The position numbers and the translations under genes were made by a program. Below, in pieces: positions 4,636 to 59,387 of a stretch of 64,000 nucleotides of DNA (its first letter is position 1; each line of letters begins with the position of its first letter). The stretch is from Phoronis australis (Eukaryota; Animalia; Phoronida), in contig NMRA01000617.1 of the NCBI GenBank assembly GCA_002633005.1, forward strand, positions 70,367 through 134,366, read 5' to 3'. The notes beneath the pieces were generated by a model. That model worked only from the letters and a program-made list of their open reading frames with translations. It searched no databases and was not told the origin of the DNA.

Positions 4636-7600
4636 CTCTGAGTTAAGAAACTCTTCAGATTCTGTACTTCGAACACTGGATGACCTGGGATTTGGATGCT
4701 CCAGAAAATCTCTAGGTGTGCTTGGGGAGCCTGCAACAAACAAAAGTTTTGTAACCGGCTACAAATTCACAGGGCCTCAGGAGATTCAGTGAGAAGTATA
4801 TACCTAGCCTAGCCTCCTGCTAGGCAGAGATGAGACCGGCAGAAGTCTCCCTAGGCATGAGGTAGTGTCTTACATTCAGAATCCAGACCAATGCAATACC
4901 AGAGACAAATGATGAAAAATCATACATCAGACACTACCAGCTACCCCGATCTTATTTTCTTTTGTTTACCAATGCAGAATGATTACCAAATATGCCACAA
5001 ATGCACTGAAATACCCACCAGAGATGATATCTGAGATGGCAAAATAGATGAGGAATAAGTCCAGAGAGAGAGAAATATCCACCTGAGAAGCAGTGGTAGA
5101 CTATGAACAAGCTACTTATTAACAACAGTAGTGATGCTACCTGAGTTAAAGATAGATACATGAACATCCGGCCCTTATAGACTATTAGTATCTGCACAAT
5201 TGAGAATCTATAAATAGCTAAGTAAAGTAAACATTTTTCAGTCAGAATTTGCAAGATTTTAATACAAGTTCATGGCTCAATTCAATGAGTTTCCAAATTA
5301 CGAGTAGACACAAAGAATCAGTGAATCCCAAATCAACCATTCTAACAGTGAATACTATCAAATGCATTTTTGAAAGGATTTAAATACATAAAAACAAGAC
5401 AGGACAAGTACACATAGCACAAGTCAGTCTCTCACTGCTAGTGCTCTTTAACTGCCTTCTGAATCATTATCACCACCACGCACATTTTCTCTCACAGTCG
5501 AGGGCTTATCCCAGGTATGGGGCTTGGGTGTTTCAGCAACACCCAAAGCATGCGTACAACAAATGCATTTGTTGGATTTAGGTCACCATGAAGAGATCAT
5601 TTGAACCTTAAAGGACAGCTTTTTATGGCACAATGTTTCTGCACATGAAAAAATTGTAAGGTGACAGCAAAAAAATTAATCATAAAACTTTACTTGAGGT
5701 AGGCCAGAGATGTGAAGGGACCTCTGTTACCCGTTGCATGAAAAGTCTCAATCTGAAACCCAAGAAGGTTCCCACACTGGGTAGGAACATGCTTTTGTCT
5801 ACTGGCTTGGTTCTATCTCTAAACTTTTTTATAAAACTCAGCAATATCATTTTATTGGACATGTCATCATCTTATTCTGAAGAACTCAGTTTAGTGACAT
5901 ACTCAGGTCTCTGAGTAATCCCAAAAGTCAAATCCCAACGGGAAACTTAGCGAACCAGTAGCAATGTGGGGGCTAATCACCAGGGACAGGATGCTAGTTT
6001 AGCTTTAGTTTAAAATGCATCACGTCTAATCACCTATATATATTTACACTGCAAAGGTCTTTGCACCAAGTCAAACAAGTTTCCCTTTGCCACCCGCTGC
6101 AAAGAAGTACCTTCTGGTACAGCCAGGAGGCGATAAAAGTCACCAGACCCACTTGATCAGCCTCCATTGCTTTCAAAAAGTCTTCCATTTGAAGCGAAAC
6201 TAGATGGGAACAACTCATTTAACAATCCTTAATTTTTAGACATCCCCAAGACTAAAGAATTTCCCAAATTTTAGAGACTGTTTCTTGTAACAAGCTACTG
6301 AGTAACCCAACATCCGGCTACAAACATTTTAGATTCAGTTTTCTATGCATGGTAACAACTCTCTGTTCCACAATTTTCCACAACGAGAGGGAGGGAACCT
6401 TGGCAACCGTCGATCTACTGAACACTACAACAGTAAGTACCCCTGCCAGTCTGCTGGTTCAGACAACGGAAGCTCAAAACATGTAACAATACCTCCAGCT
6501 TTGATGTCCATAATCTGTCGTACTCCATGGCAGAAGTCATCAAAGTTGATGTGCCCTGAATGGTGAGGATCTAATGCCTTTATTATAGGAGCCAGGTCAA
6601 CGTCCTGTAAGAGAAGAGTTAAAAAGATGGTCATACATGAACAAAATAACATCTTTGAAAAGCTAACATCACTAACAATTTTTAATTTACATTTTAGCAC
6701 AAAGAAAACAGCACTGCAAGAGTATGGAGTCATTGTATATCAAGATATTTTATCAATTATATTTAGATGGCAATGCTATTTAAATAAACTGTGCAAGGTA
6801 AACTATTTTAGGATAAAAAAAAAATTAGAATGACCTAAATGGCAGTGATTGCTCCCAAGAGATCACTATTTGTTGAACTCTGTTACAATTTGTCTCAGAA
6901 ATACTGCCTTGTATCCTATTCCTAGATTGTAGATCTAGTTATTTGAAGTTTCATTTGCATCCCGCACTCACCCTAATGGCTAATGTCACAGACACATGTT
7001 TTCGTTCAAGAGTCCATAAATGAAACAACTGCAATCCAAAAGTCACAAGACTTGAGCAACAGCCAAATCCAAATAATGTGATGCTTTTCGACATGTTTAT
7101 TGTTCCACGGTTCAATGTATTTAATGAGGTCAATCTAACAAGATAAAATCTGAGCACCGAATTGCGTATTTGTCTCAGTCTGGCAATCTATGATTGGTGC
7201 CAGCAACAAAAAATGCAATGCCTAAAATGAATATTCACTGCAGAGAACTACTTATGACCGTGCATACCTCTAGAAACTAGTTAAGGGCTAATCACTCAAC
7301 GACCACTTTCTTTCTTTTTACCAGTTCAATGACTCTCAAACTATTTAAATAATTTTAAATTCATATGGATTAACACAATCATATACAAAAATACTGCATT
7401 AAAATGGCCAAAACACTTCAACAAGACCAAACTTTACACTAAAGGAACAGACGATAAATACTACGGTGGCTTAATCTGTTAACATTTCGACTAGATCTAC
7501 CTGTCCGCCCCCTTCATCATCGGAAGCACCAAAGTGATCCCGTGCTAAACTGGCGAAGTGTTCCACTGAAATGTATCCTTCTTTTCCCTCATCACACACA

Positions 7601-8293: not shown

Positions 8294-11200
8294 ATGGACG
8301 AAGAATGCGACTTTGCTTATGAAGACGAATTGGATGCTATGAGAGAATTGGAAGGTTTGTTCCATAATTGGAAAAATGAGTGGAATGGACGTCTCCGCTC
8401 TTGTCTTGACTTCGATATTGACGATCTCGACCACTGTTTACAAAACACAGTTTTAAACTTTAGCCTTTCCAACCCTTGGACTTAGTGCAACGTTTCATGA
8501 ATGTTCCATTTATTTTGTAAAATCAGTGCATTTACCTCCCTCTGCAGTGTGCACATATTTGTCAAATGTGCTTAAATTGCTGCAACAGGCAGAAGTTGTA
8601 ATTGTTTGGTAAAAATCAGGCACAACCTTCAGAAAAGTTCAGTGTCGTCTGTGTTCTTTGTGGGCAGGAGGACTTAGGGATAATTTTGTTGCAAGAAATT
8701 GAAGAGTTGTTGAAGATCTATGCATAATGTTCTAGGGCGGGTATGGCACAACATTGTTTAGTCAACGATTTCGACGTCAGTTTTAGCGACCTCAGATTTC
8801 ATTTGGCGACTTAGGATTTTCTCCAGGCCACCAAATGTGACTTGGCGTCAAACTTAGTGACAAACACTGATTTTGTAGACTCAAATTCACTGAATGCTTA
8901 ATTACCAGTTTATTGAATGATTTGAGAAATGGCAATGATGCTGCAGCTTAGTAGATTTTCTTTAAAATTATTTTACCTGACAAATGCTATACCAGCTGCG
9001 TGGATAATGACAGGTTGCTTGTATCTAAACTGCAGTAAATATATTTTTGTGTGCAGGGATCTTGACAGGTGCTTGATTGAGGAGTGTGACTGAGATGTCA
9101 CAGGTTGAAATTGACGCAGTCCAGTACCGTATAGTCACTGTCAGTTTATCAGATGCTTAAGTCGATGTGAAATCGATTACTTCGAGCGTTTGATTAGATG
9201 CGCATAACAAACTGCATGACATATTTAATCCTAAAGTAAATTAACACCAGTAAATTAAAACACTTCTGAAATAAATTTTCTTGGTCACTTTATCAATTTT
9301 GTTGTAGATAATGTAAGGTTGATATATCCACTAACACACAACTTCTGTGCATTTCGTTGATTTTATCTGAGAATTTTGATTGTGTTCGACAATCTAAACC
9401 TCTCACTGTACTAATAATTTGATTCCTCGGCAGTAATGGTATCTACTGTATTTACCTATGCCCATGAATATAGTAATTAAAAATATAGACATTGCCATGT
9501 TGTGCGAAATGACTGATGAACGACGTTTAGTTTTGTGTGCTAATTGTGAATTAGAAGTACTCCCATGTAGAAACGAGTTGTTGTGAATATCACTTTAACT
9601 GCAGCATTCAGTGAAAATGGCGTAAGGGCTGTTCCAGTAAAATCTGTATGGGAGGGGGGGAGGCACCTTTTTTCGCACCCACAACCCATATTTTTCATTT
9701 ATTTCTTCAGCCTACCACCCGTAATTTTTTATAAATTTGAAATGCAACCACCCGTAATTTTTTTTGTTCTTGTGGTTGACTGCACAGGCGCTTGAGTTTA
9801 TCTGTTCCTCCATCACCACTAACGTCATTCATTACTAAGAAAACATATGTTTCTTATATATGGTTATTAGCCATCGAGAAATTCGAGCACCTGTGGTTAA
9901 ATGGTGTTATGGGCATGCCGATGAGGAGATCGGAGGGAGTGAAAAAGTCGGAGCTCTTTGCAAGTTGCATTTTTGTTTCAGTTTTTGATTCTATGCAGAT
10001 TGTTTATAAAATTTACTAAAATTACCCTCCATCAAACATTTATGGCCCAATGAAACAACAACGACCTGTAAATTTTAACTTTTTTAAAGTACGACCACCA
10101 GCCATTTTGAATTTAGGTCAAACGCAACCACCCATAAATTTTTATTTCAGTTGCCTTCCCCCCCTCCCACACAGATTTTGCTGGAACAGCCCTAAGTATT
10201 ACGGGCATTATTCAGATCTTTATTTAATAGCAGCAAACTAAAGTGCTACGATTGGATAGGAGTGCTTGAGTTTTACTGTATAATTTTTCTGTGTTGTTAC
10301 GTTTCAGATGACCCTCCAATTTCTAGGAAGAGTCTTAACTTCAATACCCCCAGCAGCAGGAGTAAACAGGCATCTGAGGTACTCGACACAAGCTTGCCCA
10401 CTCCATTCGATAGCCCACTGCCAAAGTTGGATCTTGATGAGGAGGGTATTAGAAAAAGGACAAAACTTGATAGACCACATGATGAAAGCTCACCAGTTCA
10501 AGGTAGGAAGATTGCATTGAAAAAAAGAAAGATTTTTTGTTTGTCTTAATTTTTTTTCAAATTTATTTTAGAAGTCTCAGCAATATAGAGACAATACTGA
10601 TTAACATTACTATCTAGATATCACATTAAAATATGGGGCATGTTTTAATTAAATTACGGGAAACCGATGACACGGTGTGAATACAAACATCAATTGGCAA
10701 AGTAAAAGCATGTTGAAATCTCACCACCTTCGTAGAAAAGTAATTTATAGCAAAATTGCTCCTTTTAATTTTTCAAGGGCTTCTATCATTCTTGTGAATA
10801 TCCAAAACTGTTCAAAACATTTTCTGATGGTAGCCGTGGCGCAAAACTTGAACATGGAAAGCATATAATCTGGTGCTACGTATGGTTCGTGGAAAATGTG
10901 ATATAACAAAGTTTCACTAGTCGGCCATGTTGTGTCTTTAATTGGAAAGATTTAATCGTGTCTTTGTCTCGTGTGTTGGTGTCACGTGCATCGGCAAATT
11001 GAATCTATGCTTGGTCACCATTCCCACTCAACAAAAGAATTTAGAAAACATGAAGCATGATTGCAATTGTTTCCATGTGTGGAATGCTGCGAAATGAAAA
11101 AGGGGTGCATTGTTTTTTGTACCTTCAACTCAAAAACTGCTTCACGTTTCGTGGGAAGAAGTACACAAGATTATACCTTCACAGTACGTGTGGCTTGATT

Positions 11201-20200: not shown

Positions 20201-23200
20201 TCCAGTCTCTAAGCATTGGACAGAAAGATGGCCACAAGAGCTTGTACTCGATTTGGCAAGAAATATTCCACATGCCCAGACTAAAAAGGTACCTTAAACT
20301 CAGTACAAGCTTGGATCCAGACTGACAACAAAAATACATGCAGGTTAAAGGATTGGTCGCCTATAAATCCCTTTCCGAAGACAAAATAACTTGATTTAAG
20401 GCACTTACTCTGGCAATATTCACTAACAGGGGTCGCGCATTTTGAGAACCAGTTTGATGCCCGTTATTTAGTGGAGAAAACTGGTTCTCAAACCACGGGA
20501 CCCCTGTAAGTGACTACTACACTTCCTCTTATAATAAAAATATGAGATACAGAACGTTCACTACATTATTGAATGCTTGTGTTGTGCCTGTTAGAGATTA
20601 TTGCGTAGGTGTCTGAGGAGGCTCTAGTCTACAGGATTATGATGTCATTCAGAATAGAGCCGCGCGATTTTTCTTGCGCATTCACAAATTCGCTCCTAAT
20701 CATGCTGTTATGGGTGACATGGGGTGGGAATTCCCCAGTGTTAGGTGGAAAATTGAGCTTTTGAGAATGTGGAATCGTATTATTAATTTCGAGGATGATA
20801 GACTAACATACCGAATATTTTGGTGGGTCTACACTACTTGTACTAATAATTGGTCTTGAGCATTTTTGAAGATTTAGGGATTTCGGATTGTTTTCATGAC
20901 TTACGCTCAGTTAATCTGTCTCACTGTAAGAATACTTTGCATGATTTAGCCTGTAATAGGTGGTTGTTTGAAAGCTGTTCGAAACCAGTTGAAAGTTAAG
21001 AACCTATGTTTTGATGAAGAATGTCTTTGAAGTTGAGCCTTACGTGCATTTAGACTTAACTCGGCTTAGTAGGTCAATTCTTGCTCAAATTAGAACCGGA
21101 ACCCTACAGCTATTGGTTGAGGTTGGGCGTTTTCGTTCTCTAGATTTTGATGACAGAATTTGCTGTCTTTGTCACACTGGTCAGGTCGAAACTGAAGTAC
21201 ATTTTCTGTTTGAGTGTCCGTTTTTCATAGATGCCAGAAACACCTTTTATTGTCAAGTTGAGATTAAATATCCACGATTCCGTGCAGAAAGCTGTGAAAG
21301 TAAATTAATTACAATCATGCAAAAAGATGTTATTAGAAAAACTTCAGTTTTCATCAAAAATATTTTTTAAGTAAGGAAAAATTATTTTATTTATGATCAC
21401 TTTTATCTCGGTCTTCTCTTTCTAGTCCTCTTACATTGCGTGTACACTTGCCTTTTCTTTTTTGCATCATGTATCTAAAGTGACTTATAAGCCCCGTGGA
21501 GGGCTGGGTGTTCCTAGTGTTTGTAACATATTCATTGTTTAAATTCATTTGAACACATGTCACTATAATAAAAAATTTCTTACTTACTTACTTACTATAA
21601 AAGTGGTGACTTGTTCGCCACTAAGATAAGATGTTATTTCTTAGTTTAGGAATAACTAATATTTCATTTTTTTGCTCTTTACTGAGCTGAATAAGTTGAT
21701 TTCACTGGCTGTGACATTCTGTATGCCGAGTGTGGCCTGAAGTAATGTTATAAAATTTCTAATCTGAGTAAGGAACAATTCGGTATCAGTTTACAGCTGT
21801 AAATGTTCTAATTGGCCATACCTGGCTGAAGGCGAGTCCATAGGTGGTTCAAAATGTACTGGTACATTCTGCATGTTGGACGGTTAGTAGCAACAGTTAC
21901 TTCTGAGTAAAACGGTGATTTTAAAGCTGTAGCAGTGCATTGACTTTTACTTTGCTTTCAGACAGCGATTTGTAAACCCACACGATAGGCCTAAAGATGG
22001 CGTGTTGCTCGACGAAGATTTAGCTGCGTGGAACCAAAATAACACATCGTTAACAGCGAGGTCAGTGAATGTTGTGAAAGTTTATAAGAATCTGAACCCT
22101 GTTTTGACAATTTCACCAAAGACGTTGTACTGAGTAAAGTTTTCCACAAACAAACCTGGGGCGTTCATTTGGATTATATCAGTTTTAAACCGACTTAAAA
22201 GGACTTAATATAGTATATATGCTCTGATATATGAGTATAGTTTGGTAACAGCCCTTCATTGATGCAAACAGTCTTGCTCGTAACTTTTAAGCAATTGATT
22301 AGACCCTACAAACAAGTCTGTATTAAGCTGTCAAACAAAAAGTACAGTCATGTATTCAGTGAAGTTTCTGATATATCAATATATAACTGTAGCCAGTGTG
22401 CAAATTGAAGCCAATGAAAGATAATCCTCACAAGTAGAAGTTTGTTGGTAAAAAACAAGAAAAACTGCTTACTGTTAGACATTCAGTTAGTTGAGTATGA
22501 CGTTTCAAGCCCGCAGCTCAGGCCCTTTATCTGGCCGTCATGCTCTTTCTGCTAGAGAATAGCAACTGTCCAAGTCGAGCAAAAATTGTGTCGCCCTGCA
22601 TCAGTATTCTTCCAAAAAAAATACTCCAGGCCCTAAATTATGAGTCAGATATCTTGACTATAGGTGACTTCATTGAACGTATGCGGGATACCAGGAATTC
22701 AAATAAAACGATCTTAATTTATCGCACGAGAAAAGAGTTGATCAAAGCTTCATATAATGTACATCTCAGAATTTGAACATTTAGTTCAATTTGTAACTTT
22801 TATTCAACTACAACAGTGTTTTCCTTTTGTGTTCTGCAGCGATATTTAGTAAGATAAGTCACTGTTTGCAGGTGATATCGGATCAATATTCTTGTATTCA
22901 AAAAAGTCTGGTTAATGATTCCTGTCATCAGTTTTGAGATGTTTGAGATCAGGGATACAAGTCAATGTGTTCAGCCATAGCGCTGTTCAGGTTAGGTCAC
23001 CATGTTGGATAGCATTTTTTATCAAAATAAAGAAACTATCCATGAATTTTCTTATGCATTAGTAAGAGATGATTTAGATCTTTTTATTTGTGCACTATAT
23101 ATTTTAATGCAAACTCTTGAAAACTATGTGCAAAGTTTACTTGTTTCCATTCACTATGAACAAAATGGTGCATTTGACATTGTTAATCTCACACAGTTAG

Positions 23201-26200
23201 AACTACGCTGGTTGTGATTATGAAATTTCCAAAATCTTTCCAGCGATCCAAAGAAAATGTCAAAATTTACATTTGCCAACACTATATAAATAGCCCGAAT
23301 ATTTGGATGGTCTAGTTATCCATGTATTGGCTTGCTTTGGATTGAAACTCTTGGATGTCCATCCATTCATATAAACAAGCTGTGTGCCATAAATTCTGTG
23401 ATGTGTCGTGTTTTGCATTTTTGCCTGAAGTTGTCATACAATAACTCCTGTGGGTTTGATTTGATTGATTGAAAACAGTTTGACTAAAGTTACAATGTAT
23501 TATGATATAAAAAACTTTAATGCACAACTAATAGAAACAGACGTGTACAAATTAATGTAAAAATAAAATGACATGACTGCCACATGAAATTCAAGTAAAA
23601 CTGATTTTCCATATTTAGATGATACGAACAAATGAAACAATGAGACACTTTCAAATAGCAACATGGCGATCAATCACAAGGGACCGGATGCTTGTGGCTT
23701 CTAGAAGCACTTCATAACTGTTGTTTAAATGACTCTTGTTTTTTCACATTAGTTGTAAAACAGTTTTCATGTAGGCAGTCTGTTCCCTATTTCACTTGCT
23801 GTGAAAATGAAGTAATTACAGGTACAGCTAATATGTAGACGTTGTTGTTAGCCAATAGTGAAATTCGTCAAATAAAACAATAAAAATCAGGAGCCCCAAC
23901 TGGGAATCGAACCACAGGCCTCTAGATTGCCAGTCTAGTGCTCTTATCACTGAGCCACTGAGGACTCAATATCTGTGCAGTTACTGTTTACAGTCAACTG
24001 TTATATCATACATCCCATGAGCGTCATTTCACCTTTTTCACATGAGATTTGGACAATCATGTAATCAGCACTTAGTTTGTGTTAATTAGATATTAATAGT
24101 AAACATATAAATGCTGATGTTGGCCAATAGTGAAATATATCAAGTAAACACAGCTAGATGTAGATGTAGATATAAGTCACCCGTCTTGCGTAATCTACCC
24201 CATTGCTTCCTGAAAGACTCCCATTGTATGTTTCCTTTGAAATAAACGTGCTACTCTTCTCAGCAGATCTTAATATATTCTTTTCATCAAGATTGTTTTA
24301 CCACTGCTGGTGCTAAAAAGGTAGTTGTTCTAGAGTAAAATAGTACAAGTACTTCTTGTTCTAACAATAACAACACTGTCTTGAACATTTACAAGTAATA
24401 TAACTCATAATTATATAGACATGCACATTTAGCAGGTCCCGGGCTCAAGTCATGGTTTGGGCAGAAACCTTCTTGTTTGGTCATGTGATGTGGTCAACAG
24501 GCGGCATGCAAACCAAACTTGCAGTAACTTGTAGTTTATGAAAAAATCCGTAAACAGGAAATTTTCACCGATTTAGGACGCAATATGGCAGACCAGTGAA
24601 GTTTTATTTTTTATTAAAGAGATGTTGCACTAAATTAATGTTTTACCTTGTTAGTTCTGTATGAAAGCTACCATCAGAGATTATTTCAAAAAATTGCAGG
24701 CACTCGCAACAAAGTCTGAAAATCTTTAAAAATAAAAAGGTTAATGTCCAGAATTGGTGAGATTTTAGGGTTGTTAAAACATTTCTGGTGAAACAGCTCT
24801 TTCCAGATGTAGGTGGCCTTTATAAAGGCCGTTGTAGTTCCTGCATCATCATTCCATGGACAGTCTGTCCAGATGGTGGTCAATGATGCTCATTTCTTCA
24901 TCCTCTGACTGTCCCAGTTCGGTCTTCATCACTTTCAAATTCACCAGCTGTCTGTACGCATACTCCAAAAACATTTGTCTAACTCCCTTCGTGACAAGCA
25001 TACGAATGCGGTAGTTGTATATGAAATGTCTTAAGTTTGCGATACGAGCGCGGAACATTCGAACTTCAAGTGCATCAAGCTCTCTGTCAAGGAGACCAAT
25101 CTGGTGGCAGGCTCGGATGCACGTTGTTCGCAGGTAGTGCAAACGGGCCTCTGCACGACTCTCCATGACATGCAAAGATAACTTGTACATGCAGACTGTA
25201 GCCAACATCATTCTATCATGCTTTATAGTGTGGCCAGTGTAGGAGTGAATATGATTGGTTGTGTCATGGAACCTCACTCTGATATGGCCCAATCAAACAG
25301 TCCCATTCAAATGACTTCCAGTCATTCAGGCTATGGCAGAAAACCAAATGCCACCATTCTTCAGTGGTAAGTTGAAGGCATCACACTGAGACAGACTCAC
25401 TAATGAATAGATCTCTATGAATAAGCAACAGCACATGTCAGTCTCAGTGGATTATGAAAGTTAATCCTTTCACACTAGGTGGCAGCTGCTATTGTGTCAT
25501 TGCATGAGGACAGGCAAAATTAACAAAGCTGTGTTGGTGTTGGTTTGCTTTCCCTCACTTTATTAGGCATGTTAAGGTTTTGTTGGACCCAAGAAAATGG
25601 CCAAACTTGGTTAACTTTAAACATCATATCTCAGTAATGGCCGAGGGGATTCAAGTGAAACTTTCAGATACTATGCTTCGTGCATTGCTCTCCAAGTTGG
25701 AGAATTGTTTTTAAAGTGACGCTCTTTTGCGGAAGGGGCTATCAAAAAAGGACTCGAGGTTTTTATGGAGAAATAAAAAAGTTGCATAAAATGGGATGGT
25801 ATTTGAGACAATGATAAACGTTTTTGAAGTTTCACCTTGGACATCTATATTAATTGCAATTTGGTCATGTAATTGACACTTTTTGTTTTGTTGTGAATGG
25901 GCCTTTCTGGTTTTACTAAAAAGACATGGTCACGTGACCCAATCGATGTTATATTGGCGTAAAGTCAAAAATCACCTTCTACAGGCTATCTAGTTTCAGA
26001 AATACTTTTTACCAAGTTGATTTTTATAATTTTGTAGATATTTGGCTGCACATACTCGTCAATACGGTTTTGCATATTACTTTATTGCTATTTTCCTTTT
26101 ATAATTGTGAATAAATTGCTTTGTTTCAATTTTCTTTTTACTGAATGTTGAATTTATTATTTCACATTTTAAATGTAAAATAAGTGAAATTTAGACGAAC

Positions 26201-29200
26201 GGATAACTCTGTGCAGAAAAAAATACATTAACAGGTAAAAGTTTGGCTTGATCGTCACTGGGCATAAACATGGCCAAGGAACTTGATTATAAGTAAGCAC
26301 ACAAACTACATCTTCTTGCCATTGAACAATGAACTAATTCTTTTGCAACGACAAATGAGGTTGAAATATTGGTTAAATTTCTGGTGTACAAAAACGCCAT
26401 TTGATAAGGCCATCCTTAAAGTATTGTTTTTTCCCCTTGTCCTATTGTGAGTTCTCTTGAGATTGGCGAGTCAGTTTGTACAATATTTTATTTTTTTCTT
26501 GACCTTTGTTTGGCTGTTCAAGCCAAGCATAGATCATGTGCCTCATGGGTGTAATGCTGGGTGTTTCAAAGAAGAGCTGCACTTCTTCTGAATATGCAGC
26601 ACCTCTGTATCCATAATCTGTCTTCTCAAAATTTGCTCTGGAACAATTACTTCTAAAACTTATATTATGAAATGATTACATAGATAAAAAATCTGTGATC
26701 AGCTCATATCTTTTGGTGCAGCTGCAATGTTTAACAACGTGAAATATTTTGCTTTTAAAATAGACCAGATTTTCTTACCTTGTTAGTTGTTGGGTCCACT
26801 TGTTGACAGACATGTCAGCAAGTATAATGCAGTCCTGTCCCAGGTGTGCTATTGTTAGGCACAGAGGTGTGAATAACTTGACATGACTAGTTGAGTCCTA
26901 GGATGATTGACATACCTGCTTATGGCCAGTGATCATTAAGTGTGAAATATACCCATTTGGGTGTTATTAGCTGGGTTCTTTTATCAACCTACTGTATTAA
27001 TCTTGGTTATTGCCCAGAACACCCAAAAGTGAGGGGAGCAGGCATGAGCTGAGCATTGGTGCTTAAAAACTAAAATAAAATTGAGAAGCTCGATCTGGGT
27101 TGGTTGCGTACAGGAAAGGCCGCTCAGGTTAATGCCATGGGAGCTGCATTGACTTAGCGTGAAAGAGTCAAATAGAAAATAAAAGATTGGTGGATTTCAG
27201 GCAATGTAGTAAGGTGCTTATCATTTAGAGTGGAGTGATCAAGCAGAATAGCTCAGTAGGATGACTCAGCTTTTTTTTTCTTACACTTGTAAAATGGGAT
27301 GGTAAGCCGAGCGTAGCCGCTTAAAAGTGGACATATTGGAATTGACCTATCGCAAGCTCTGTCCCCTTGCGAAATATCGACAAACAAACAATAAGTTTTA
27401 CCCAGCAACGTGTTGTTTGTCGGGTAAAGTGGCGGCTTGGATATGAAGGTGTGTCGAGCATGCTGTGTTCTGATTGGTCAGTTAAGCTGTCACTCAAAAG
27501 TCTGGCGATAGGTTGATTGTGGAGTGTGTGGTACATAGGCTTTCATCTGGAGGATTACGGTGCTTCTTGTTCAGTTTGTGTGGGTCTATTAGGAGCTTTA
27601 AAAGAGGCATTAGCAATTAGAAGCATTTGATACTGCACTGGCCTGCAGTTGAAACCAGGTTGGGGTGGTTGAAGACATTTGAAATAGTGAAAGTTGAACA
27701 GGATATGTCTAGGGGGGTGAGTTTTCTTCCGTCGTGTGATCTCTTCTGTCCTGAACTTGCCGACAACCCAAAGATGGCGGAATATGACCGCGAAAAGTGG
27801 ATGTACGAAAAAGCTTGTCAGCAGGCTAAACTACTAAACCAACACTTGGAGTTGTTGGAGACAAGATTTAGGCGCACGATGAAGACGAATTGTAAAGCTT
27901 TACGATACAGTTTACGCATACAGATCGTGACCACAGAAGGCCTTCAACACATGTTCAACGAATTTCTCTCATTGAAGTGGAGAAGAATGCGCGAATTAGG
28001 TCAAGAGCTTGGTTTAGAGACGACGGGTGGTGATTTTGAGCAAGACGATGACATAGATTTTGGTGTGCTACGCATAGATGAAGAATCTGGTTAGAAATTT
28101 GTGACTGGTGCGATTTAAATTAATGGAATCGGCGTGACTTTAATGATTTTTAGTCCGTGATACTTAGTGACTTATCAAGTGTGTGATTTCACAATTATCA
28201 TAAAGACCAGCCACAGCGTAAGTCACTTTGTATGAAATGATAAACAACCTTAACTTCCTGTGGATCGGACAGAAATGAATTAAAGAAAGCTTTTGACTCT
28301 TGAAAAGCGTCATTTCCGGGTGTCAGCTTTTAACGTGTAGATGATATTGTTGTGACAACCATTGTTTCATTTAGATATGACATATGAATTTGTTGTGCTG
28401 TTTGTAAGTATGCTATGTCTCTAAGAATGCTGTGGGGAAGGATCTCGGCTATTAACAACGTTGACTCCATACAAACGTGTGAAATGTTTGACATAAGAAT
28501 ATTTCAGCTAACTATATTGAATGTAGGGTTACTTTTGTACTAATTTTTAATTAGTAAATGGTATCACCTTCAATTGATAGTCTATCCATTTGTTGAATGA
28601 AAGAAATTGAATGATTAAAAGTATTTAATTGTAAACCAATCAGTCCATTTCTTGTGCATTGTGAGTTTCAGGCACAATTTAGAGTCACAGTAAGTGCTGC
28701 CTTCTTTTGTGTCTGGAATCTATTTTAGAAAGATTTAATATACAGCTGATCATATTTCCCAATTAAAACAATAATGCTGTTCATTGAGTGACTGCTTTTT
28801 TCTTTAACTTTTTGAGACAATGGTTTTTATATGGACTGTTGGGTACACATTGCAGGCTTCCTGGCAGCAGTTGTGTTTTTGCCAGAGCTTGATGGTGAGA
28901 GCGTTTTGTTTACATTCGTAGCATTGTTTGTCTTGTCTCTTTACAATATGACTATGACCTGTAACACAATCCCATTACTAACAAATGGGGGTGCTGACCG
29001 CCTTTGTTTGAAAATGATACAGAAACAGAATTTCGTGGACAGAATTGTTGAATGGCGGAGATAACACATTGCATATTCAAAATGTTAACAGCCGTGTGGG
29101 TCTTTGGCTAACAACAGGCCCCCTTCATACTCGGGTTCTGTAGAGGGTTAGTTGGCAATAGTCGGCAGTAACAGTGTGTAACACAGACTGCAATCGACAG

Positions 29201-32200
29201 TGCTGTCTGCTGGTGGTCTGTTTTAGGAGACCGGTTGGCTAATTTTCCTAGTGATCGCCGAACCGTTTCCAACGGGTCGAATAAAAAGGCCTTTCCACTT
29301 CTAACCACAAGACTCTCTGTGGCTTGTTGAGAATGCTTTTTTACCTGCATAAGGCCTTGGGCAATTAGTGTAGTGGTGCCAAAATAGCTGGGTGAAATCG
29401 TCAAAAGACAATTTAGTTTTGTTTCAATTGGAAATTTGGATATTCGAGTTATTTTTTCATGTAACCTAATACACACTACAGCAAAGATTTAACGCATTGT
29501 ACAATAGTCATGCAGTTGCAGCCGAGGGTTCAAATTTATCAAATTTGTGTATAGATTTGAAAACAAGATACTCAAAAATACTTGAATTTATTTGTTTTAA
29601 GTAGTTTTGAAAATGTTGGTTTCAAATCTAAGAAGCAAAGACAGGATTGTGAGATTTTAAGTTCTAACCCTGCAGAAGTAGTCTTTCAAGACAAATTCAA
29701 ACTCCATTGGCAAGTACCAAGAGGTGTTTGACTGTTATTCTTGCCTCCTGAATTCAAAATAGCAGTCTATTCTTGAAGTTGTGCTATGTGATAGTAGGAA
29801 CACCAAGTTGTAACTTTTAGCAACCTGCACATGAGATATTTTCACGAGTATTAAAAAAGAGGAGAGTTTAAGTTTGGTTTATTTCTTAGATGTATGAGGG
29901 CACGTACACAAAGTTTGACTTGGGGCAGTCATTTTGGCTGCTATGAGGTTTTCATATCTGTGAATGTGCATATTTCAATCATTATGTCAAGTCCTAGGAT
30001 TCTTCCAAGAATGTAGAGTGCTGTCAAGTGGCAGGTTGATTGCCGTGTACATGTTTTGAGACCTAACCTGGCTGAAGCTAGGGTTTTAGCCATCTCTTGA
30101 CCAAATCCCTTTAATGTTGAAACATCACCGAGAGATAGTTGGAGGCTACGGAATTATTGGAGGGGAGCGATATGAAAAAACTTGCGAGTCATGAAAGGAA
30201 TTACCATTTCATCAGGCGCTTTATAGTTAAGTTCAGAGAGCGCTAGATAGCATATCTTGGTATTCACCACTGTTGTTACACGATGTTGTAAGGTGCACAC
30301 TTTTGTTCTTCAGGAGATTCTATGGCATGAGAATTTCATGTTTGTCATAGAACAAGGTCCCCCTTCTTGTCATATTGACCTTTTATGGATAAAGAGATGT
30401 ACAAGTTATGGATGAAAAGGAGGCATCAAAGCAGGTGAAACAAATTGTCTAATCACCAAGGTCTCCACTCTGAGACGCTCTCACATTAAGTTTTCATCGC
30501 CGTAAAAAGGTCGAAGGGGTGCATTCTTTAGATGACGCGAACTGATGGCTAACATTTTTTCCAGGTTTCACAATGTTCTCCAGACGGTGCATGAAACGGA
30601 CGACAATGAAAAATTAGTACAGGGATTGTATGAGAACTACCTGGAGATGAAGTTCAAGGACCCGCGGTTGGAAGGGGTGAGGCTTGCAGCTATGAAACAT
30701 GATCATCATATAAATTCTTCCTATTGAAGTGTCTAATAAGCAGAAGTACAGTAAAGTAATTCCTCAGTTGTTTAGCACACAATGTGGCCAATAAATGAAA
30801 ATCTGTTTCGACGAATTTCTCCACAAAATAACGATTAAGAAGCTCTTAGTCTATTACTGATATGGTGTGCGCAGTGTAGATGTTACAAAAGAAATTGGTA
30901 AATTTTCCATTGTTTACAGTAAAGTTATGAGCCTTTGGAAAACTGCAAAATGGCAATTTGGGCGTCTGTTTTTATTTGAAATAGATGGAGAGTTACCATA
31001 TTCTGCATCATTTTCAAATTTCTCAGACAATCATCAGCAGACAGAAGATATTGTCTGTGTGTGTAATTAATGTTACAATGACGATTTTGGTCTCTGCCAC
31101 ACGCAATCAGGCATACATATATTCATTTAGCATATTAAGACCCAGTTGAGTGAACAGAAACCTGACTTCAATGTCGGACTGTGTTATTTGGAGGTATTTG
31201 AACCCACAGTCCTTAGATTGAGATGAGTATTTTCTACCATTACTACCACTCTGCCTCTAGATCGTCACCCGTCCCAATTGTTTTAAGTTTCTTTTATTAC
31301 AAACTGCTACCTCTTGTTTGCACAGCATGTTTTTGCATTAGGTGTAAACTTGCAGTAATGTGGTTAGATTTAGTATTGACTTTTGATTGAAATTAAACCT
31401 TGTGAATTCATTGGTTACTTTTCAACATTTCAGGTCAACCTAGCCAATGAGTGGCTCTGTTTCAATGACCTAATCAACCAAGAAGTCCTTCACCATCAGA
31501 ACTGGACCATAGCTAAATACCTGGCCTATCTACCCGTCACGTTCCACCTTATATTTGCCACCAGTGCATTCCCAAAAATACAGTACCCATCCAGCTCATA
31601 CGAGGTCAGTTAGAAAAGTCTGGCATAGAAGCAACGTCCAGATGTTTGTATTCACCTGATTGTTTTTTTCACAAAAAATCATGATTTTTCAAGGACATTG
31701 CCCTATTTTCTGCAAACATGATTTTTCTCACACGAAACTTGCAAATTGTGTTTTTTATTCTGTTAGCTACAAAAGCACGTCACCTCTGATTTTATTTTAA
31801 GGTGACATGTTTAGATGTCTTCCTGAAATATCTAAATAACTAGCATCTGTCAACCCATAAAACTATGCGCTCACATATTTGTATGTGAGCGCGGCGCATT
31901 GTGCCGTCAACCCTGTTCATTCGGCGTCCTACCAGCGCCCACTGCTGTTTCTCAAAAATCTTTGGATATACATGAAATTTTGCAAGATTCGTTCCTTTTA
32001 TAGATGGGATGGCATGAGCGAATTTGTCGGACTGATAAAACTACCAGTGTGCCTCCTAGTGGCAATTTTAGTTTTTTAAGTTTACCTCTGTGTCTTCATA
32101 TTTCCTTAACGGATTTTCACAAGATTTGGCAAATAGGTATTTATTAGTGAGATGACGCCACCTTGCCATTTTCAGATGGCGTTGAGGTATCTTGTGCCAC

Positions 32201-59108: not shown

Positions 59109-59387
59109 CTACTCAAAATACTCCATCCATTTCTCTCGGTTCGATACGTACGGTTGGAAAAGTGGATGAAGCGCTTTTGGCGAAAATGCGAGACTGTTGT
59201 AGTTTGGAATGTTGATTTTTGCGTCAAGTCTGGGCGTTGCTTCTCTCCGTTCTGTTGCGTCATCACCCGTGTCCACTCCTCGGGAATCTCCGCTGTCTGG
59301 TAAAGTTGGTTGCACGCGCGACGTATGCTGTCCACCGTGGTAGCGCTCGCTTTTTCTCCACTTCGCTCGTCTGTTTTGAAACCACAC
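59109..59387 (-). CDS. Terminal coding exon of a PRD-class (paired-like, Q50) homeobox gene, possibly Drgx-like
   Basis: Polypyrimidine acceptor CTTTTTTTCTTAG directly before GTG TGG TTT CAA AAC AGA CGA = VWFQNRRAKWRKSER. This is the intron position between homeodomain codons 46 and 47 that is typical of PRD-class genes. The helix 1-2 exon was not found in the window and probably lies beyond 64000. No OAR motif seen. The family cannot be assigned from helix 3 alone. Confidence 0.85.
   Translation of the reverse strand: MWFQNRRAKWRKSERYHGGQHTSRVQPTLPDSGDSRGVDTGDDATERREATPRLDAKINIPNYNSLAFSPKALHPLFQPYVSNREKWMEYFE

Follow-up and report, generated by a model that had tools for sequence, protein, structure and literature searches.

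What are the two short genes that lie head to head inside one intron of CHTF18 in Phoronis australis, and why does one of them end like a histone gene? The window considered here is the whole stretch of DNA analysed, 64,000 nucleotides (nt) of contig NMRA01000617.1 (assembly GCA_002633005.1, positions 70,367 to 134,366 of the forward strand), and coordinates refer to it unless a locus is named. The two genes, A and B, are a divergent pair belonging to a large undescribed lophotrochozoan protein family that bears the histone mRNA 3′ signal.

22061..30564, + strand: CHTF18 intron hosting both genes (GT..AG, phase 2, 8504 nt; joints seen in RNA)
24849..25166, − strand: coding sequence of gene A (105 amino acids from the likely ATG; a predicted basic helical hairpin with an acidic tail)
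27705..28094, + strand: coding sequence of gene B (129 amino acids from 27705, or 106 from the stronger-context ATG at 27774)

Promoter and 3′ end of gene A

As judged from its sequence, gene A has the anatomy of a replication-dependent histone gene: a CCAAT box, a TATA box, no coding intron, a stem-loop and a downstream element. The last two lie just beyond the interval described in the initial annotation, which overlooked them and was to that extent an incomplete picture of the gene. They are its most unusual trait, and most family loci share them.

25254..25258, − strand: CCAAT box of gene A (from sequence; putative function)
25222..25227, − strand: TATA box (TATAAA) of gene A (from sequence)
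24815..24830, − strand: histone-type stem-loop of gene A (GGCCTT TATA AAGGCC; Rfam Histone3)
24797..24804, − strand: purine-rich downstream element of gene A, GGAAAGAG, starting 11 nt past the stem (candidate U7 site)
24603..24615, − strand: two AATAAA hexamers of gene A, some 200 nt past the stem-loop (may mark a second end, with a poly(A) tail)

The stem-loop begins 18 nt past the stop codon and has a perfect 6-bp stem, a 4-nt loop and A/C-rich flanks. Its match to Rfam Histone3 (RF00032), confined to the coding strand, scores 30.4 bits (E 1.4e-5), and it is the sole hairpin of histone type in the 64-kb window, where 0.01 would be expected. The features given as diagnostic of a histone-type end are a G-C pair at stem position 2, a U as the third loop base, closeness to the stop codon and a purine-rich element (bioRxiv 10.64898/2026.10.14.759114), and gene A has all four. 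The same source puts the median distance from stop codon to stem-loop in metazoan histone genes at 30 nt. At the place of the downstream element, an A nucleotide is nearly invariant in the family alignment.

The start of gene A is also better placed in light of this promoter. The open reading frame (ORF) runs from 24849 to 25211 on the − strand, and its in-frame ATGs lie at 25166, 25190, 25208 and 25211. Because the TATA box starts only 16–19 nt away from those at 25211 and 25208, 25166 (or 25190) is the likely start.

The likeness to metazoan replication-dependent histone genes, as known from RF00032, the histone downstream element (HDE), SLBP and the U7 small nuclear ribonucleoprotein, extends to several levels. 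Like these, gene A is short, lacks coding introns, has CCAAT and TATA boxes, and carries a 6-bp stem with a 4-nt loop close past the stop codon and a purine-rich element about 11 nt further on; genes of the family are likewise multi-copy, arranged in tandem or as divergent pairs (in the window and in locus L032), and sometimes found beside H3. The protein, however, differs, being a long antiparallel hairpin with no Pfam histone match and no similarity to H3. Since it encodes no histone, gene A is not a replication-dependent histone gene, despite its histone-like appearance at the RNA level. Histone variants offer a further parallel, in that family members without a stem-loop mostly have AATAAA, and gene A, as read from sequence, combines a stem-loop with a downstream AATAAA in the manner of H2A.X with its two 3′ ends (PMC4604434). 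Unlike the variants and H2A.X, the family protein is not a histone.

Gene B has other flanks. Its promoter offers only a TATA-like TTTAAAA, and no stem-loop follows it: a search of 28094–30564 with the family covariance model, filters off, returned nothing at E<=10.

28279..28284, + strand: ATTAAA, the closest putative poly(A) signal for gene B (from sequence)

These differences in 3′ ends and core promoters argue for different regulation of A and B. The shared co-regulation and the heterodimer once suggested for the pair are unsupported.

The 3′ signal across the family

The same signal recurs behind related genes. A set of 78 loci, most of them 1–3 kb long, was obtained by scanning metagenome contigs with a 20-sequence alignment. 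When k-mers enriched past the stop codons were counted without bias, those of the histone stem-loop and the downstream element came out on top. Under a fixed rule that calls a stem-loop plus element within 200 nt (<=200 nt), 49 of the 75 genes with enough 3′ sequence carry both, vs 1/75 antisense and 0/66 upstream controls; among non-redundant genes the figure is 16/40. The median distance from stop codon to stem-loop in the 49 genes is 35 nt, and the downstream element of the family is of AAAG type.

Covariance models give a concordant view. Of 40 loci searched with Rfam Histone3, 19 have a stem-loop following the gene, and 21/21 matches are in sense. Only L034 (37.8) and L017 (36.5) exceed the Rfam gathering score of 34; a true H3 stem-loop in L078 reaches just 24.6 bits, so this cut-off also misses real stem-loops. 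A family model trained on 45 of the 78 loci plus gene A yields 61 matches in the 78 loci, every one of them in sense (61/61), and places a stem-loop behind the gene in 56/78. Of its matches, 57 (in 56 loci) follow a family gene, the one in L030 overlapping the predicted end of the frame, and the other four lie behind H3 genes (two), an upstream paralogue (one) and the end of an unidentified upstream gene (one). No histone ORF stands between a family gene and its stem-loop. The 22/78 loci without a stem-loop behind the gene include some that lack sequence there.

Within the aligned stems, 93% of cells are paired and 23 two-sided changes fall at 4/6 pairs, a result beyond that of 500/500 shuffles and of every slid control. 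Stem position 2 is an invariant G-C pair in 46/46 aligned family stem-loops; pair 4 is unpaired in 18/46, mostly in one bivalve-like group. Stem-loops are present in branches that group with bivalve proteins and in branches that group with annelid proteins. Presence of the stem-loop also goes with other features of the gene, since AATAAA occurs within 300 nt (<=300 nt) in 14/17 loci without it vs 4/18 with it (p 6e-4), and a TATA box in 16/23 loci with it vs 6/18 without.

Upstream, a TATA box lies at −40 to −140 from the start in 23/43 non-redundant loci vs 1/34 control windows. De novo k-mers recover TATA together with a TGTCA-type motif, and a screen of 26 known promoter motifs found no clear enrichment vs shuffles, apart from weak counts for E-box, C/EBP and FoxO-like sites. 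The TGTCA/TGACA-type motif is enriched in the 300 nt upstream of family loci (GTGTCA in 15/43 vs 3.3 expected) and resembles a TALE-homeodomain site.

The layout of the genes is equally consistent. The core is without an intron in 78/78 loci, in a search that favours uninterrupted cores. Tandem copies occur in L004, L034, L076 and L044, and L032 (1988–4593) holds a head-to-head pair about 2 kb apart, laid out as in the window, with no stem-loop found in that locus. An H3 gene adjoins a family gene in 2/78 loci and 5S rRNA in one. Around L074:1-146, L078:1-463 and L052:1434-1886, family genes either follow an H3 gene that has a stem-loop of its own, at a distance of about 1.1–1.4 kb, or neighbour 5S rRNA genes; these family genes belong to a branch in which stem-loops are mostly absent.

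The gene pair in its host intron

The initial annotation placed both genes within a CHTF18 intron spliced cleanly from 22060 to 30565 in phase 2, and this is borne out by the RNA joints, the GT..AG sites and CHTF18 exon matches. The intron is spliced out in 8 reads of run X5 and 7 reads of run X6, and the two exons downstream of it match the human CHTF18 chain (E 6.6e-4 and 9.6e-10). The ORF of gene B, like that of gene A, was recovered at the coordinates first reported (27705–28094, + strand). The description of both genes as intronless stands for the coding sequence only.

The alignment counted by hand in that annotation also held: A and B align without a gap over 68 residues, 22 of them identical (22/68; BLASTP E 4e-11, 43 bits). 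The alignment score of 102 compares with a shuffle mean of 26.6 and maximum of 64, and was reached by 0/20,000 shuffles. Identity by codon position (1/2/3) is 34/38/20 of 68, with third positions near random, which is the pattern of old protein-coding paralogues. A and B are real paralogues, and each matches other family members better (63 and 66 bits) than its partner (43 bits). In the family tree both form long branches (about 2.0) that join with modest support (89/92), a grouping to be read with long-branch caution. Since each of the two has nearer relatives in the family than its partner, local duplication is only a possible origin of the pair.

Both genes are single-copy by DNA depth (51 for A and 47 for B, against a single-copy level of about 50), and one contig covers the whole of gene A with zero differences. 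No long flanking repeats were found around A or B in the window. A short repeat resembling a miniature inverted-repeat transposable element (MITE) does lie between them, about 190 nt upstream of B; its arms are at 27340–27356 and 27502–27518, and its DNA depth runs to tens of thousands, where single-copy sequence has about 50.

27340..27518, strand not assigned: high-copy short MITE-like repeat with 17-nt terminal inverted repeats

Size, range and conservation of the protein family

A single-sequence word search with A found no relatives. A two-sequence profile of A and B retrieved 635 clusters (50% identity) at E<=1e-3, the best 150 of which were returned. A family hidden Markov model (HMM) built without A and B scores A at 79.5 bits (E 1.6e-17) and B at 79.4 bits (E 1.8e-17), the E values being for a 1.8-billion database. 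The relatives with a species name are molluscs, annelids or nemerteans in 21/21 cases, nearly all labelled uncharacterised or hypothetical, which bears out the earlier mention of such proteins in molluscs and annelids; as most matches carry no species name, the taxonomic range of the family is not fixed by them. A few members bear automatic coiled-coil or acidic-tail labels.

The family core of about 68 residues is almost gap-free and shows no length variation. Across 316 sequences the median charge is +7 for the core and −7 for the acidic tail behind it, so that the basic core and acidic tail noted in A and B characterise the family. Purifying selection, likewise proposed earlier, is seen at family level: dN/dS (the ratio of nonsynonymous to synonymous divergence) is below 1 in 15/15 disjoint locus pairs, with a median of 0.16 when HMM-aligned. 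This run supersedes a pattern-anchored one in which 17/19 pairs were below 1 and two, at very high dN, were above it. The core of one subfamily is nearly invariant across five bivalve genera. An N-terminal TRS-like motif occurs in just 37/389 sequences. Hundreds of assembled contigs carry oyster members.

No member with a longer fused form or another domain was found, in what is a weak test. One protein, P0155 (Mya MAR_001626), is the only one of 359 with two domain copies; the adjacent MAR_001628 and MAR_001631 belong to the family as well, which suggests a tandem cluster or a fused gene model. Neither A nor B belongs to a Pfam family, and no transposon or viral match emerged, in keeping with the first description of an unnamed family without a recognised domain. 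Searched with an oyster member, the ESM Atlas returned one unnamed, mostly mollusc cluster at 0.88 and no named cluster.

Predicted fold

The two-helix hairpin predicted from the letters alone recurs in AlphaFold models of A (predicted local distance difference test, pLDDT, 89.6) and of an oyster member (pLDDT 92.7). Covariation among about 330 sequences (effective number 176–190) ranks hairpin contacts at the top, with 6 of the top 25 vs an 11% background. An antiparallel-dimer register was also drawn from covariation; it was picked after seeing the data, was not significant (p 0.16–0.43) and was rejected as evidence. Almost every position of helix 2 is conserved and hydrophobic, which exceeds what a single hairpin interface requires.

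The antiparallel two-helix hairpin is shared with TBCA, HR1, the ESCRT-III/Snf7 core, the LSD1 tower, the ING dimerisation domain and ROP, and ESCRT-III also combines a basic hairpin with an acidic tail. Matches between the family and these proteins stay at chance level, with none significant in sequence or structure. Searches of Pfam, PDB sequence profiles, Foldseek (PDB and viral) and VIA returned generic hairpins only, lists that a distant relative may escape. No fold match reached E<=1e-3, and VIA gave Z<=11.1 with a flat ranking, the level of any long hairpin. Among the best Pfam rows for 140 members, TBCA appears in 6/140 (best E 0.003) and HR1 in 2/140, level with other coiled coils. 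TBCA is the Foldseek top match for the model of A (E 0.05). With the oyster model it is not; there LSD1 chains come first (E 0.69, with 12% identity across 84 columns); the VIA list includes chains of LIN9 (Z 10.0) and ING (Z 10.3). The 25 Pfam families listed for the 140 members include no histone family, and an alignment to H3, the only histone aligned, gave no homology (HHalign probability 0.2%).

Interpretation and alternative explanations

On the sequence evidence above, A and B are divergent copies of the family, gene A probably giving a tail-less RNA and, likely, a protein of S phase or the early embryo that acts on chromatin. That the stem-loop signal is used by SLBP and U7 as in replication-dependent histone genes is, by analogy, very probable. 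The pathway steps are those described in PMC4604434, bioRxiv 10.64898/2026.10.14.759114 and PMC13525598. SLBP would bind the hairpin of gene A RNA and U7 would pair with the downstream element; the RNA would be cut a few bases past the stem and left without a poly(A) tail. It would then peak in S phase or be stored in eggs and decay once replication ends, and the resulting burst of protein might act beside new histones. Gene B would be the polyadenylated counterpart, and it is reasonably probable, from the same analogy with histone variants, that B and other copies without a stem-loop are polyadenylated paralogues of "replacement type".

The role of the protein is a more tentative matter. The proposal preferred here, though only weakly held, makes it a nuclear factor required whenever new histones are, whose Arg/Tyr-rich hairpin would bind a conserved partner or nucleic acid and whose acidic tail would bind histones in a chaperone-like way; the chromatin role is drawn from co-regulation and charge only. 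A broader version is somewhat more doubtful still. It would make this an ancient lophotrochozoan chromatin family run like a sixth class of replication-dependent histones, with tandem intronless genes, egg-stored tail-less mRNAs processed through U7 and SLBP, and polyadenylated variants such as B.

The main rival for the protein's role keeps the histone-type end as a timer only. The protein would then be a histone-independent regulator of the cell cycle or early embryo, its hairpin taking a partner helix into a three-helix bundle as an adaptor or decoy. This is unlikely, yet it accounts for a hydrophobic, conserved helix 2 that exceeds the needs of one hairpin interface, and for a core that is invariant in length and, in the weak test above, never fused to another domain. 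The hairpins of the LSD1 tower, LIN9 and ING bind partner helices, and these proteins are the ones that surface at the top of Foldseek for the oyster model (LSD1) and in the VIA list (LIN9, ING). All these fold matches, however, sit at the generic long-hairpin level, and PDB sequence-profile searches list none of the LSD1, LIN9 or ING proteins at E<=10.

Three further explanations concern the signal or the genes themselves. The stem-loop could be a relic without function, left from an old insertion in a histone gene or cluster, on mRNAs that are ordinarily polyadenylated. The quarter or so of loci without a stem-loop, gene B among the genes lacking one, and the many assembled contigs with oyster members, perhaps from poly(A) libraries in part, would fit such a history; it is nonetheless very improbable given the compensatory stem changes, retention across branches of 35–50% protein identity, the fixed stop distance, the conserved downstream element and the depletion of AATAAA where a stem-loop is present. 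Decay or silencing of A and B in P. australis is improbable to a slightly lesser degree. It would agree with the lack of reads over A, the long branches with 6–7 of 17 conserved residues lost, and the high-copy repeat just upstream of B; against it, both frames are open over 100 codons and align to the family core without a gap, codons have kept their first and second positions but not their third, which are randomised, and A retains CCAAT, TATA, a perfect stem and the downstream element. Least probable of all is that the family is cargo of a mobile element or virus borrowing the histone pathway. Many paralogues and recent tandem copies would be natural for cargo, but A and B are single-copy without long flanking repeats, the core is near-identical in five bivalve genera under a low dN/dS, longer fused forms did not appear (a weak point), and neither a viral-contig relative with alignment A6 nor a BFVD match at E<=1e-3 was found.

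Several observations weigh against the reading of A and B as functional copies with a working histone-type end. Gene A has zero depth in three stranded RNA runs, of which 18–19% of each was read and for which tissue and RNA selection are not on record; gene B shows about one read pair in one of the three, in CHTF18 sense. Zero depth over A would be seen with an RNA that is tail-less or limited to certain stages, and just as well with a silent gene, and is not support for the reading. The stem-loop of gene A falls under the Rfam gathering score, and AATAAA sites lie farther on. By count from the family alignment, A keeps 11 and B 10 of the 17 most conserved positions, so the pair, already on long branches, may have a changed or relaxed function. 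The two H3-adjacent loci sit in a branch mostly without stem-loops. Finally, the 78 loci come from a bivalve-rich alignment and include near-duplicates and relatives; their counts and p-values are not independent, and the p-values overstate independence because the loci are related and partly redundant.

If the preferred reading of a used histone-type end is true, its meaning goes beyond this locus. The family likely makes a non-histone protein through the histone message pathway in molluscs and worms. Histone mRNAs are described as the only known non-polyadenylated cellular mRNAs, and no non-histone SLBP target was found in HeLa cells (PMC4604434). A conserved multi-copy non-histone family with a histone end in molluscs, annelids and Phoronis would break this histone-only rule, SLBP and U7 would gain a second client, and these animals would have a protein whose need is tied to DNA replication. 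Since poly(A) sequencing under-counts mRNAs that lack a tail, this would also explain why the family is unstudied.

The family resembles spiralian-specific genes such as lophotrochin and trochin (PMC7441323) in being conserved, lineage-restricted and without an outside homologue. Five family motifs are absent from the available supplements of PMC7441323 that list the 37 proteins, and by this motif search the family is not among them. A literature search, with subscription journals and bioRxiv supplements outside it, found no report of the family or its 3′ ends, and no paper carrying the five peptide motifs or six family accessions. In the available text of the annelid and mollusc histone surveys PMC12153100 and PMC12210499, "stem-loop" occurs 0 times in each.

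Other features of the window

Repeats account for several further features. A tRNA-like sequence at 23892–23964 (− strand; Rfam tRNA, 52.3 bits), with DNA depth in the tens of thousands, is a tRNA-derived short interspersed nuclear element flanked by a 47-nt imperfect direct repeat. Additional high-copy interspersed repeats, seen as partial pile-ups of RNA and DNA reads, lie at 25622–25942, about 9625–10195 and about 20436–20492. A 125-codon frame at 20993–21370 (+ strand), inside a high-copy region and with no Pfam match, resembles the C-terminal end of a long interspersed nuclear element reverse-transcriptase ORF.

Two exons are also of note. The exon at 6425–6739 (− strand), head to head with the start of CHTF18, has weak EF-hand matches and resembles the N-terminus of Rab11-FIP3/4. 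The exon at 59109–59387 (− strand), a fragment with no Pfam match, opens with the C-terminal helix of a paired-class homeodomain.

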